Positions 42,957 to 50,687 of a DNA stretch of 64,000 nt are shown here, one piece after another. Made by a program: the position numbers and the translations under genes. Where the stretch lies: positions 4,280,001-4,344,000 of the forward strand of contig NC_087250.1 in NCBI RefSeq assembly GCF_037042905.1. The letters are read 5' to 3'. Numbering within the stretch: position 1 is the stretch's first letter; every line of letters begins with the position of its first letter. The stretch comes from Lytechinus pictus (taxonomy: Eukaryota). The notes under the pieces were generated by a model. That model was not told where the DNA came from. It saw only the letters and a list, made by a program, of their open reading frames with translations, and made no database searches.

Positions 42957-42999
42957 TGATGTCATGTTTCTTTTTTGGTGTTTTATTCTTGTTATACAG

Positions 43000-43293
43000 G
43001 TGATAATTATCGTGGATGCCATGGCGACCTGCCAGCTGATCGAGTTCTTCGTGATGGTATTTTATTTACTGACCCGAATATGACTATCCCCCTCTGCATC
43101 CAGTATTGTAACGCTGTAACTTCATCTTACTATGTGTACGCGGGCGTTGAAAATGCGGATGAATGTTTCTGTGGGGAATTCAGTGATTGCTTCATTAGGC
43201 ATGGGATAGCATCAGACAGGGACTGCCAAATCCCATGCCGTGGAGACTCCACTGAGAGCTGTGGAGGATTAGGATACATATCTGTCTTTGCCA
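43000..43293 (+). CDS. Gene B exon 4: WSC domain
   Basis: 294 nt, phase 1-1, CAG| ... |GTGAGT. Encodes YRGCHGD...MTIPLCIQYC...YVYAGVENADECFCG...CQIPCRGDSTESCGGLGYISVF. Confidence 0.95.
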
Positions 43294-44149
43294 GTGAGTA
43301 TTAATATGTAATAGCGGGTTTCCGCACAGTGACGCACTACGGATTAAAAAAAAAACACATTAATATATTAAAAATCCCCGTGAAATGACAAAGACATAGC
43401 TGGGAGGACTTTGTCGAAAATTGTTGAATCAGAAATGCAATTTAGTCCTAGGTTTCGGAGCTGACAAAAAAAATGCAGATCTGTAGTTTGCTCCTGAACA
43501 AAATTAGAAATTAAATTCACCAGTTTTCGACAAAAACTTCTTGGATGTCTTTGTTATGAAGGGAATTTTACATTTTCTTTGTCATTGAACCCGTGTACAT
43601 CTCGGATTAAGAGTCCTTAATCATAATATGTATACGAATTATATTTGAACGTTGGACACTTGAAACTCTGCAACGCTGAAAAATCCTTTGAAAATGCAAG
43701 TCAAATCATAATGGAGAGCTACACCCGACAAAGGAAATTTAATTAGTGGTGTCGAAAATCTGTTTATCTGACGGTCAATCGGATCGGGGTCGCCCTGGCA
43801 ACTAACCCGTTTATGTGGTCTACTGATTAAGGCACCGACGCGGCGTTCAAAGCTGGGGGCCCGGGTCCGATTCCCGGCAGACATTTTTTTCGGCATTACC
43901 AATTTTCCAAAGGGCAGATAGCTCCGGTGAACCTTGATTTAAGCTACGCCTATCATTGTTCTCTTCATTCATTTCTTTCACAATATATTTGAATGCAAGA
44001 GTTGCCAAAGCTGTTGTACATGTATAATTTCTAACATTTATTTATATATCCATTTTTTTTTAAGTAAAGTCATTCATTACTTTAGAATAGTTTGTTTAAA
44101 ACACTATCCTGTACAGTATGTGTGGCATAATTTGTTTAATCATAATATG

Positions 44150-44380
44150 CATCATTTACATAGCACTTAATACAAATGTTTCTAAGCGCTACATACTATT
44201 ACCCCGGCTTTAGCACGGCTATCCTGATCGGGTGCATCAAGCATTCAAGGAATTCCTTCCTACCGGGTACCCATTTACTACACCTGGGTGGAGAATGGCA
44301 AATGTAGATAAACGCCTAGCAAAATGACGCTGGTACTGTGGTGGGATTTGAACCACGGATTTTGTGCCACAACACCTCTA
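44150..44380 (-). mobile_element. tRNA-derived SINE
   Basis: B-box GGTTCAAATCC on the minus strand. Body homologous to 3070-3182. Confidence 0.65.
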
Positions 44381-44432
44381 CAAGTGCATTATGTTTAAGG
44401 GCATTATATACTTCTTACTTGCAACCATGTAG

Positions 44433-44528
44433 TTAACACCGACAAGAGTAGGGGGCGGACCATACCTTCTACTGCACCAACGACGACAACCTTGTCATCA
44501 GCCGTACTGCAACCTCGTCACCATTTAT
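44433..44528 (+). CDS. Gene B exon 5: short Ser/Thr stalk
   Basis: 96 nt, phase 1-1, TAG| ... |GTAAAT. Encodes INTDKSRGRTIPSTAPTTTTLSSAVLQPRHHL and shares PTTTTLSS with gene A exon 5. Confidence 0.85.
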
Positions 44529-45133: not shown

Positions 45134-45922
45134 GTAAGTTTCATGAATTATTTTCGATATAATGTTTGACCAAAGATATTTTTAGGGGTGTTGCGTTTGC
45201 TATTCACCAAAGGATAGTATGCTAAAAAAATTTAATTTATCCAAAATCATCTTTTTTTTCTTGTATTGTAAAATATTGTCTTCTTCACACGCCACCGCTG
45301 CTTAATAATATGCACTTTCTGATTCCTTGAGATACGGAAGTAACTTAGATATGATCAAGGTTCCTCTAAGGAGATACGTATTCAACACTTAAATATATTA
45401 TTGTTTCAGTGAACTCAATGTCCAATATTGAATGGTATGTACATGTTCCTTTCATGTCTCCTAGCTTCTTATAACTAAATGCTTTTCCTGTACTTTAAAA
45501 GGTCAAGTCCACCCGACAAAAATATCGATTTGAATAAATAAAAAAAAAAATCCAACTAGCCTAACGTTGAAAATGTCATCAAAATCGGAAGTTATGACAT
45601 TTAAAGTTTCGCTTTGATATGCACAACACATCGATATGCAAATGAGATAGTCGATGATGTCCCTCACTATTTATTTTGTTTTATTGCTTGAATTAGACAA
45701 TATTTTATTTTTTACAGATTTTACAATAGGGACCAACTTGACTAAACCATATATCAAATAATGCTAATTCCACATGTTCATGGAGGAATTTTATCGTTGT
45801 TTCACTTGACGATGAGGAGAAAATTAGAATATTTCATATTTCATATAATAAAATACAAAAGAAACAGTGAGTGGATGACATCATCGGTCTCCTCATTAGC
45901 ATACAGACCAGGATGTGCATAT

Positions 45923-46717
45923 GAAGAGCTTGATTCCAAAAGGAGCTAAATCCACTTTTGATCAAAATGGACTTTTTTATACAAATATATGTATCTTAGA
46001 CGTGGGAATCAAATGCAACATATCGCATTTTAAAAAAAATTTGGAAAGGTTGGTAAAAATTAATTGCAAATTTGAGTTTTGTTCCAAAAGGAGCTAAATC
46101 AAAAACAGTTTTGTTCCAAAGGAGATAAATCCACTATGCGGTTATCTAAAATTTGTTATTTTTCCTATTTTAAAGAAAGTTATACATTCATTTTTTAGGT
46201 ACTTGTTGTGGATACAAGTTTACACCATCAGTGCAAATTTTGTTGTAAATGACATAATTTTACAATTTTTATGAATGATTTTGGATTAAGCTCTTTTTGG
46301 AAATATATATCGAAAAGTAACCGTCCTTAGAAAAGATGACAAAATATATTTTTTTTTTTCATTTTATAATTTTCAATGGATAAACATCATAAAAGATGTG
46401 AAATGAACTCTGCTAGCAATGTTTTTATGTTTCGTGTTCAATTTCCAATATCAATCATATTGGCAAAATTGACATTTTACTAGGGTTTTGTTCCAAAAGG
46501 AGCTAAATCCATGAAAAATAACATTTCAAAAATTCTTTGAAAATTTAGTATGAATGCTAGAATTTTGAAATCATGATTTCATTAATCTAAAATGTTAGTA
46601 CTATCATCTATATCAAAATAAAACAGCAGTGGCTAAAGGAAATTGGTGAATAAAAAAATCTTGATTTACAGAAAAATACCAAAAGTGGATTTAGCTCCTT
46701 TTGGAACAAAACTCTTC
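45923..46717. mobile_element. 795-bp GAAGAG...CTCTTC element with ATAT TSD (Sola1-like, second family), nested in an older MITE (~45497-46740)
   Basis: TIR GAAGAGCTTGATTCCAAAAGGAGCTAAATCCACTTTTG / CAAAAGTGGATTTAGCTCCTTTTGGAACAAAACTCTTC with ATAT on both sides. Confidence 0.85.
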
Positions 46718-47766: not shown

Positions 47767-47968
47767 GATGATGGAAGATCTTAACAAGGATCAGAAGACA
47801 CAAATTTTGTTTCAGTCTCCCAATTCGACAGACAAAGACACGGGGTTTTACCATGATGTTCAGGATGTCAGGAAATTAGCCTCATCGTCATCGCCCGATG
47901 AACAGAGACGTGACAGTGTCTTAGATCCCAACGTTCGCAGTCACCTGCCAAATTCATACATGACGTAA
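47767..47968 (+). CDS. Gene B exon 7a: cytoplasmic tail to stop
   Basis: Acceptor CTCTAG|G, phase 2. Encodes MMEDLNKDQKTQILFQSPNSTDKDTGFYHDVQDVRKLASSSSPDEQRRDSVLDPNVRSHLPNSYMT*. Confidence 0.9.
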
Positions 47969-47971
47969 CTG

Positions 47972-48075
47972 AAATAATGATAATGATAATAATAATGATG
48001 CTGATAAAAATAATGATAATAATAATAATGATAATGATAATAGTAATAATAATAATTATAATGATGATGACAATG
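47972..48075. repeat. (AAT/GAT)n microsatellite immediately after the exon 7a stop
   Basis: Run of AAT/GAT trinucleotides. Confidence 0.9.
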
Positions 48076-48782
48076 AATAACAGTTTTGGGGGCGTTTTCT
48101 AAAAGAGATAAAACATCTCTTTATGTGATATACAGACATGACAGAGTAAAACATTAATAATTCTAATATAATTCTGAAAAGGGCTTGGTCCAACTGCACT
48201 TACGGATGCATAAAGGATGTAAAACGGAAACGAATCTTGCCATCCGTTGGAAAACGTTATGTATCCGAGAGCAGATCATCCTGAGATTCGGAACGGACAA
48301 AAAATTGCAAATGTGTCGTTTGTCCAGAGTCCATGCATGATGACATTGATGTTTTGATTCACCGATTTTCGATAAAGGCTGTTTTGTCATTAAAGGGCTT
48401 TTCACAAAAGATTCTCTCCGTAAAGCCCGTCTCACACTATGCGATTCGTTGCGAATCGAATTTGGAATCAATTGTGATAACATTTGATATGGATATTCCA
48501 ACTAATAAAATATTACGGATCAGAGTTCAGAATAGTGGTAGGAGTACTGAAATCGAAATTCAGTCCAGTTGGAGCCTTCCTGAATGAATAAAAACAAATT
48601 CAATTCCAAATCGTACTGGCGTCATCACCGGCTGTGACTTGAAGCCAATTTGGACTTTACTCCGACTCCGACCATAGGGCTTGCCGCAAAGTAAAAATAT
48701 GATTTTAGTTTTCCAAATAACGTATTTTTAATAAAGTTGGTTGATCAGTTGTCTCGCAAAGCGGTTGAAACTGTAAAAGAGT

Positions 48783-48823
48783 TCACGACGTTTCGTTGGC
48801 TGCTGCTCAACTTTGTCAAGTGA
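48783..48823 (-). ncRNA. Minimal type I hammerhead ribozyme (antisense arm of the palindrome)
   Basis: Exact reverse complement of 48887-48927. Confidence 0.7.
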
Positions 48824-48886
48824 TGGAGACTTCGGTGCGAGGGCGAAGGTTATAGCGAGTATGCGGACGTCGCACCGAAGTCTCCA

Positions 48887-48927
48887 TCACTTGACAAAGT
48901 TGAGCAGCAGCCAACGAAACGTCGTGA
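48887..48927 (+). ncRNA. Minimal type I hammerhead ribozyme, Penelope-type, U3-A8 core variant
   Basis: UCAC-UUGACAA-A-GUUG(agcagcagc)CAAC-GAAAC-GUC-GUGA: stem I UCAC/GUGA, stem II GUUG/CAAC, palindromic stem III ACGU, GUC cleavage triplet ending at 48923. Confidence 0.75.
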
Positions 48928-49179
48928 ACTCTCCTACAGTTTCAACCGCTTTGCGAGACAACTGAACAACCAACTCTATTGAAATCTCCGCGATGACGAA
49001 CATCTTCAGAACATAATTTTACTTCCTGGAACTTTCATATTTAATGAAAAATGCGATTTCTTGAAAAATCGCGTCGCATCGGATCGCATAGTGTAAGACA
49101 GGCTTTAGATAATGCGTCTGTGAAGTGATTGCGACTACTTTCTAATTTTATTTTCTTTGCTAAACTTTCTTCTCTTCAG

Positions 49180-49345
49180 GTTGACGAAGGATTCTAACAA
49201 TGATGAGATGACACAATATATGGATTTGGTCCAGTCCTCTAGTTCGACCGACAAACATACATCGTTGTTCATTGATATCGTAAATGCAAGCGAACAAGCC
49301 TCACCGGACGACGAGGTTGTCTACTCCTCGAAGATATATAAATAA
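49180..49345 (+). CDS. Gene B candidate alternative terminal exon 7b (or an exon relic)
   Basis: Strong polypyrimidine tract and CAG|G in the same phase as 7a. Encodes LTKDSNNDEMTQYMDLVQSSSSTDKHTSLFIDIVNASEQASPDDEVVYSSKIYK*. Homology to the gene A tail continues after the stop (KPDSALGPYD). Confidence 0.6.
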
Positions 49346-50687
49346 AAACCTGACAGCGCATTGGGTCCCTACGATCATGACGATAGCAGTGAGGTGTCCT
49401 AAGCTTATTGTGAAAATGGGGAAGAGAATAATTCCATGTATAAGTGGTACCCTTTTCAGTAACTAGGTCCGGACCTGGGGCCCGTTTCATGAAGGACTTG
49501 CAAGTGTTGTAACTTTGCCATTATGGCAACTACCATGGTAATCTTTATTCTGATTGGCTGCTGAGCCATGCTACCATGGTAGTTGATATTATGGCAAAAT
49601 TACAACAGTTGCAAGTCCTTTATGAAACGGGCCCCAGGGCCGGCCTTACTTCGTAAAATGTTCAGTTCATTTTAGCCCGCGCCATTCATGAACTATTTTG
49701 ATGCTGCTTTTATCATTACCAGGACAGCGCCAGGGTCCGACCAAATAGTTTATGAATGATGGCAGCACAGGGCCCCGGCTGAAATTCCTCGCACGGGTTA
49801 ATTAAAGGTCACAGAATTTTTGAATGGGTCAATGTAAAAGCAGCTCGGCTCTGCTATATAGTTACTGAAAGCGTTTATTTTTTATATTTTTTAAATATTT
49901 TTTGGTGCGGACTATTTTAGTGCGGGCCTGCAGGGCAAAACATTATGAGTTGCTAAAAGGGGTACCATAGTGACTGCTTACATGGATAAGGAATGGTCCA
50001 CTCTTCTGCAAGCAAGAAAGGCTACGAGTGTGGTTGCCAAGGTTCTTCTTGCCAGTGTTATTACAATTTGATTATATTTTGATGGATCAGAAGGTCTTTA
50101 ATGTAACATAAACTTACCCATTATATTAACGCATCTAACGCATTGTTTGGACAACATTACATACAAGCTTATATTCTAATTTTAATTTCATATCAAATGT
50201 AATTGTTTATCATAATATTTTACGTCATCAAAGTGTTTTCATTAATATAATTTATGAATGTAATGATGATTACATTTTTTTTCTGACTAGGTTTTATCAT
50301 CCGATAATAGCATAACATTGTTTATTTAAATGCATAAACATTTTATAGTGACTGGATATATAAGTGCACATGGAAACAAACACTCTAATTATTAAGTTCT
50401 TTGTTTTTAATAAGTTATGCATTTGTAAACCCCGACTAGTGAGGAGAGCTTCATAACAGAAACTAAATTTTCTTTTAGTCATCCTCAGGCACTAGTCGGT
50501 GGTAATTTCTTCCTCTTGTACATATTCTTGTTGTCATTTAACTGGAAATGAAATAAATGAAAAAAATTAAATAAACACATGATTTAGATTGAAGGAGAGC
50601 TATAGAGGTCTCTATAAAAGTTAGTATGAGCAGTCAATTCCATAGAAGTTGCAATTTATTGTTTATTTCATGTCTTGATTTTGTTTA

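Follow-up and report, generated by a model that had tools for sequence, protein, structure and literature searches.

An intronic palindrome with a hammerhead motif on each strand in Lytechinus pictus as the probable remnant of a Penelope-like element

The stretch of Lytechinus pictus DNA analysed here, called the window below, is 64,000 nucleotides long and contains a WSC-domain gene. Between two exons at the 3' end of this gene lies a nearly perfect palindrome with a hammerhead ribozyme motif in each arm. The locus raises the question of what such a palindrome does where it is found. It may act on the gene, by cleaving the pre-mRNA or by forming a double-stranded RNA, or it may have been left by a transposon and be carried along without effect. 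The evidence below strongly favours the last of these. The palindrome is very probably the remnant of a Penelope-like element (PLE) insertion, consisting of two short head-to-head copies with their own hammerheads, situated in an intron and most likely inert. The coordinates of the features are collected in Table 1.

Table 1. Features of the palindrome, its hammerhead motifs and the surrounding intron (positions in the window)
Feature	Position	Strand	Details
GT..AG intron of the WSC-domain gene	47965-49179	+	1215 nt; holds a microsatellite, a MITE-like repeat and the PLE palindrome
MITE-like repeat, left part	48416-48721		terminal inverted repeat 48421-48472
Inverted-repeat arms	48726-48840 and 48870-48984		115 nt each, 96% complementary, 29-nt spacer; repeat search
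Left PLE copy	48727-48872	- (sense)	146 nt, 5'-truncated; 93-95% identity to full-size copies
Hammerhead motif, mirror copy, identical	48823 to 48783	-	C17 = 48787
Right PLE copy	48870-49012	+ (sense)	143 nt, 5'-truncated; matches full-size copies over 48870-49011, reaches the usual 3' terminus
Minimal type I hammerhead, U3-A8 core	48887-48927	+	predicted cleavage after C17 = 48923
Helix I	48887-48890 / 48924-48927	+	4 bp
Core box UUGACAA	48891-48897	+
Extra unpaired A between positions 9 and 10.1	48898	+
Helix II	48899-48915	+	4 bp, one-base bulge, 2 bp, 4-nt loop
GAA	48916-48918	+
ACGU	48919-48922	+
C17	48923	+
Tail	48985-49012	+	28 nt, right end only; includes the next unit's ATG 48993-48995
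MITE-like repeat, right part	49010-49107		terminal inverted repeat 49056-49107

The palindrome and its two hammerhead motifs

The original prediction, made from the letters of the window, had described inverted arms of about 111 bp with about four mismatches around a 29-nt loop. This geometry holds. The arms found by the repeat search are slightly longer, and a letter-by-letter comparison places five mismatches in 115 positions (arm positions 64, 65, 97, 107 and 112), four of which fall in the shorter 111-nt arms. Folded as RNA, the palindrome gives a single extended hairpin at -209.3 kcal/mol; relative to 200 shuffles, z = -27. Both hammerheads of the window are intact and the mismatches lie elsewhere in the arms. 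Such a pattern in the letters could hint at constraint; the chance that five changes all spare the 41 of 115 motif positions is ~0.11, which is not significant. Constraint on the mismatch-free first 63 nt of the arms was also considered and rejected as weak (p ~0.02 for a post hoc split).

A second palindrome is present at 49454-49658, just beyond the contig end of the last exon, with 87-nt arms (85% complementary) and a 31-nt loop. RNA depth with fixed differences at these positions suggests a further dispersed repeat.

Each arm had also been predicted to hold a complete minimal hammerhead, and both the sequence and a descriptor scan agree. The core of minimal hammerheads (min-HHR) is given by YUGANRA, GAAA, a pairable 3-8 and H17; the window has UUGACAA, GAA followed by A, and C17, on both strands. 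The G10.1-C11.1 pair is formed by G 48899 with C 48915 and is G-C in all six distinct rows of the alignment described below. There is no loop III, and helix III is the short ACGU, palindromic at 15.2-16.2. The two motifs lie 100 bp apart on opposite strands. A descriptor built from published min-hammerhead features matches the 64-kb window only twice, once on each strand. The same descriptor has 0 matches on either strand of 200 first-order Markov random 64-kb sequences, a loose control, the descriptor having been written after the motif was seen.

A search with hammerhead covariance models, proposed in the original prediction as a check, gave no match in the window and turned out to be uninformative, Rfam being blind to the min-hammerhead type. 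At the gathering score, Rfam has 0 matches in the whole window. With E values up to 10 in 48600-49100, no hammerhead appears; the matches there are to microRNA long-hairpin models only, all below their cut-offs, and are due to the hairpin shape. Rfam also finds no hammerhead at three sister loci whose copies have a canonical core, and its blank on the window therefore carries no weight. When the genome was searched with the Hammerhead_1 model RF00163 (gathering score 34 bits), 73 of 115913 candidates were scored, and these gave two weak matches elsewhere, both below the cut-off (best 25.7 bits).

The source element and its sister families

The arm of the palindrome is a dispersed repeat. Counted genome-wide, as the original prediction had proposed, it is matched 77 times in the 812 Mb of the genome, at ~36-40 places. 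Several of these arm copies are 2.3-2.7 kb apart and enclose one long ORF. In the full-size copies (on C2, C15 and C7), the ORF encodes an RVT_1 domain (E 7e-9, with YVDD) and then a GIY-YIG domain, the latter slightly under the Pfam cut-off (E 2e-4; 21.9 bits against 22.6). The order of a reverse transcriptase (RT) followed by GIY-YIG is the defining trait of Penelope-like elements. The full-size copies are identified as PLEs by this domain order, and the earlier assignment of the hammerhead to a Penelope-like pseudo-LTR is thereby borne out.

The copy on C2 is arranged as a partial tandem whose unit measures 2664 nt, and the ORF of this copy ends at a TGA inside the hammerhead core. In the window, this stop codon is TGA 48892-48894, which is U4-G5-A6 of the core. 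The ATG of the next unit follows ~100 nt after the TGA, and the hammerhead lies ~70 nt before that ATG. The family includes copies with uninterrupted frames. An Anolis element differs from the PLE family of the window in this respect, as its ORF begins inside the hammerhead (PMC11167929).

Several further observations concern the elements themselves. The unit on C2 (C2:50583000-50592999) is compact, with ~100 nt of non-coding sequence in its 2664 nt. Look-alikes of the protein are found in eukaryotic clusters with HTH_animal, DUF8422, RVT_1 and GIY-YIG, commonest in Arthropoda; they are a lead on kinship only. The genome is rich in PLEs: the C-terminal 240 aa give 866 candidates, and among the best 150, which were scored, head-to-head inverted ORF pairs are frequent.

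The hammerhead is a real motif of the element. For 15 sister PLE copies, whose proteins have 49-60% aa identity to the family of the window, the sequence that follows the end of the ORF match was inspected. The motif is at the same place in the ORF 3' ends of all 15, found in seven by the strict descriptor and in a further eight by a pattern without a pairing demand. Family A, that of the window, combines the core UUGACAA with GUUG/CAAC as the outer pairs of helix II and ACGU in helix III. Family B has UUGAUAA, GAGU/ACUC and AGCU, so that the palindrome of helix III is kept, and family C has CUGACGA, GUCU/AGAC and ACGU. The outer pairs of helix II are GACU/AGUC in a further subfamily. The ORF stop of family B is likewise a TGA at U4-G5-A6, and that of family C is a TAG inside helix II.

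These differences preserve pairing. In a seven-row alignment with six distinct rows from the three families, 93.6% of cells pair. Among the six distinct rows, both partners have changed in seven of the 13 pairs; these include 3-8 (UA in four rows, CG in two) and 15.2-16.2 (CG in three, GC in three). The covariation score is reached by none of 500 shuffles, and controls with slid partners have at most one such pair; the score refers to six distinct sequences from three families, of which family B was chosen with a descriptor that demands pairing and family C without. The replacement of the usual C3-G8 by U3-A8 had been read in the original prediction as a compensatory change. That reading is correct, since C3-G8 occupies this place in sister families of the genome. 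Exact patterns occur 408 times genome-wide for the U3-A8 type and 123 times for the C3-G8 type, and the reversed patterns 0 and 0 times.

Judged by such comparisons, the hammerhead is maintained as a structure wherever PLE lineages of the genome are active. The genome holds hundreds of min-hammerheads, and the covariation between sister families at 3-8, in helix II and at 15.2-16.2 adds an independent line of comparative evidence to the view, already published, that such motifs are maintained structures. The dispersed copies are free to decay: of 22 family copies aligned, 11 carry changes in the 41-nt motif, in part at core positions and often at the CpG sites of ACGUCG. In older copies, these CpG sites often read TG or CA, which fits CpG decay.

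Two truncated copies inside a MITE-like repeat and an intron

Homology to the element spans about 48725-49012 only, and resolves into two copies joined head-to-head. The left copy lacks the tail; it consists of the final ~56 nt of the ORF followed by hammerhead and 5' leader. It begins 29 nt deeper in the ORF than the right copy and ends 28 nt short at the outer end. The apparent loop of the palindrome, 48841-48869, is the first 29-32 nt of the left copy, that is, C-terminal coding sequence of the ORF on the - strand. The right copy ends at the same point as the tandem copy on C2. Loop and tail are asymmetric, the loop belonging to the left copy and the tail to the right.

Similar arrangements exist elsewhere in the genome. 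The copies on C15 and C7 each have a long body and an inverted upstream piece of 143 nt, with the same long and short ends as in the window. Three short palindromes, on C18, C14 and C3, share their outer ends with that of the window, have unrelated flanks and differ in their central junctions. At each of these short loci, the arms share variants that are absent from the other loci. Shared arm variants would fit the making of both arms from one template per insertion, and gene conversion between the arms would likewise produce them.

Close hammerhead pairs (<5 kb) were counted in the first 100 matches from each of two pattern lists (U3-A8 and C3-G8). Among these matches, 25 pairs are head-to-head (-,+), none is tail-to-tail (+,-) and three are tandem, so that the order is head-to-head in 25 of the 25 inverted close pairs listed. 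The spacing of the close pairs listed ranges from 61 bp to 4.5 kb. The palindrome of the window is therefore no special structure; it lies at one extreme of a graded series of truncation lengths. The strict (-,+) order among the matches listed and the continuum of spacing could help work on the integration mechanism of PLEs.

The same data bear on two other origins. The palindrome, ~288 bp in all, could be a non-autonomous mobile unit that is copied whole, as might be thought from the four loci (window, C18, C14 and C3) with common outer ends and unrelated flanks. The central junctions differ, however, and the arms share variants specific to their locus. The spacing of the listed pairs from 61 bp to 4.5 kb is also what is expected from variable 5' truncation. 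We consider a mobile unit distinctly unlikely. The palindrome could also be an artefact of assembly, a fold-back join, and inverted structures of PLEs are known to trouble assemblies, as stated by Craig et al. (2021; PMC8557442). A fold-back join is, however, hard to reconcile with arms that differ at five places, with the asymmetry of loop and tail, and with the presence of the same architecture at many loci. The probability of an artefact is close to negligible.

The preferred origin of the palindrome, a PLE insertion, can be described as follows. A single insertion, as we infer it, would have produced two severely 5'-truncated 3' ends joined head-to-head. The resulting form would be the short extreme of the standard architecture known as the inverted 5'-truncated copy, with a tail at one end. 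Each copy would have brought the element's own hammerhead, which overlaps the ORF stop, into the intron as inherited baggage. The original prediction had allowed that the palindrome may equally be a neutral young insertion. Neutrality is still the best reading, but the insertion is not a very recent one, with a difference of 4.3% between the arms and of ~5-6% between the copies in the window and full-size copies.

The surroundings of the palindrome show where the insertion took place. The MITE-like repeat that flanks it on both sides is ~400 nt long without the PLE piece and has 52-nt terminal inverted repeats, 79% complementary. Its left part was compared with the best 40 of 962 candidates (85-91% identity) and its right part with the best 39 of 493. 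Three uninterrupted copies have ~16-27 nt where the window has 48722-49009, and the PLE piece is an insertion because these copies lack it. RNA reads from uninterrupted copies skip 48714-49013, and MITE-like copies elsewhere are transcribed in total-RNA runs. The PLE piece is nested in the MITE-like repeat, which is itself inside the intron. An ATA/ATG-type microsatellite (48004-48078) is found at the start of the same intron, directly after the donor region.

The intron is spliced. An RNA-derived contig (run X1) joins 47834-47964 to 49180-49417 with 0 differing letters, and the reading frame continues across the junction 47964/49180 to a stop at 49343-49345. A second RNA contig joins 43173-43293, 44433-44528 and 45043-45131, and the WSC domain is in an upstream exon, 42960-43304 (E 1.4e-14). 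The unspliced frame ends at TAA 47966-47968. The exons on either side of the intron had been taken in the original prediction for alternative ends of the gene, 7a and 7b. At least one transcript has them joined by splicing; what survives of the proposal is that a short-tail form may possibly arise by non-splicing.

In three raw total-RNA runs (~6% of each), the exons of the gene have depth 0 and the palindrome has depth 0.2-1.0. Reads over the flanks carry fixed differences and derive from paralogous repeat copies. Two other regions of the window attract RNA reads. At 43708-44388, total-RNA depth is 400-900 on one strand and up to 286 on the other. The many loose ends, the joints of the 'goes back' kind and the fixed differences at this place point to an abundant, expressed repeat in another part of the genome as the source of the reads. 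The text of the loose ends we take to be tRNA-like; an ARAGORN scan of 43500-44500 found no tRNA. At 45524-45977 lies another repeat, with a word depth of up to 32669 in the X1 contigs; its depth in the raw RNA runs is moderate.

Expected behaviour of the transcript and comparison with known systems

What would a transcript of this intron do? A pre-mRNA that reads through the palindrome would contain the antisense arm first and then the single sense motif. It would be expected to fold into the 115-bp hairpin instead of the ribozyme, and the intron would then be spliced out. The predicted energies agree with folding into the hairpin. With the 41-nt motif held out, the fold has -128.4 kcal/mol as against -209.3 kcal/mol, and the motif's own fold has -8.2 kcal/mol. 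Release of the motif thus costs ~81 kcal/mol and returns ~8, and the hairpin is favoured by ~70 kcal/mol.

Biochemical data exist for a related motif. In the work of Cervera and De la Pena (2014; PMC4209133), a single Schistosoma motif did not cleave detectably in vitro, and the activity of dimeric and trimeric constructs was only low. The transcript of the window has one sense motif and a perfect antisense, a dimer would be needed, and the hairpin is favoured; self-cleavage at this locus is therefore unlikely. We infer that the intronic motif does not cleave itself and that the palindrome has no effect on the host gene.

The original prediction had gone further, and proposed that self-cleavage after 48923, or sequestration of the ribozyme by the hairpin, could set the choice between a short and a long tail. 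The motif is indeed complete and structurally supported, and it lies in the intron whose retention gives the short tail (stop 47966-47968; long tail from 49180). Each transcript, however, has only a single sense copy, of the type with a loop-less helix III that PMC4209133 describes as needing a dimer. The antisense arm is transcribed first, and head-to-head pairs are common, 25 being found among the matches listed. An Anolis PLE is reported to be without RNA-seq ends at the hammerhead site (PMC11167929). With the ~81 kcal/mol needed to free the motif and an intron that is spliced, the functional part of the prediction is not supported, and a role of the motif in tail choice is extremely unlikely.

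The hairpin itself might matter. Its 115-bp duplex could act as a dsRNA that is edited or diced, with small RNAs that perhaps match active PLEs; splicing may or may not be affected. The duplex is both long and close to perfect, and it is located in a transcribed and spliced intron. It spans hammerhead, leader and ORF end of a family in which some copies still have uninterrupted frames. On the other side, no A-to-G excess is listed over the palindrome, at a depth of 0.2-1.0 and with the gene silent, and the insertion mechanism accounts fully for the structure. A dsRNA role is unlikely. A stronger form of it, in which the intron is a hairpin-RNA locus whose diced duplex yields small RNAs that silence the coding PLE family in trans, is very unlikely. 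If it were true, a by-product of insertion would have been retained as a defence against the PLE family. The insertion remnant without effect remains the preferred reading. It amounts to a clean negative: a 'ribozyme palindrome between exons' is explained by a PLE insertion, and a regulatory reading would have to start from RNA evidence.

How does the locus compare with known hammerhead systems? A full-text literature search for hammerheads with U3-A8 returned PMC4209133 alone. That paper describes the U3-A8 covariation in the Cercyon elements of Schistosoma, and paired motifs separated by 100-700 bp, one on each strand. Every unusual feature of the motif in the window has its counterpart in the min-HHR of PLEs described there. 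Both are of type I and sit in a pseudo-LTR, with a 4-bp helix I and a longer helix II. Both have a base between 9 and 10.1, the G10.1-C11.1 pair, a palindromic 15.2-16.2 and no loop III. They also share U3-A8 in place of C3-G8, pairs on opposite strands and hundreds of dispersed copies. They differ in host and element family, in that the ORF stop of the window is U4-G5-A6, and in the one-base bulge after 4 bp in helix II of the window. Hammerhead_1 of Rfam (RF00163) has the same catalytic core boxes in outline; it expects closed helices, whereas min-HHR are without them.

The non-LTR retrozymes of animals (Cervera and De la Pena 2020, PMC7229834; 10.64898/2026.07.22.740005) are a second group to be considered. 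They are likewise hammerhead-bearing, PLE-related non-coding sequences. Retrozymes, however, are direct tandem repeats that give circular RNAs, and the window has a single inverted pair, from which no unit with a sense ribozyme at both ends can arise. A non-LTR retrozyme was rejected on this ground, the motifs of the window being on opposite strands.

The palindrome can also be compared with the inverted-copy architecture of PLEs. According to Craig et al. (2021; PMC8557442), a 5'-truncated copy lies inverted beside the 5' end and so forms inverted repeats, and a tail of 30-40 bp is often found at one end only; the partial tandem, or pseudo-LTR, is named there among the forms of PLE insertion. 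The tail is tied to two start sites of reverse transcription in a later study (Mob DNA 2024; PMC11167929). The palindrome of the window is like the architecture of these two sources in its head-to-head copies, its tail at one end and its strong 5' truncation. It differs in being extreme, as both copies are cut to 143-146 nt and only the hairpin is left. It adds one more example to a kind of transposon remnant that is already well described.
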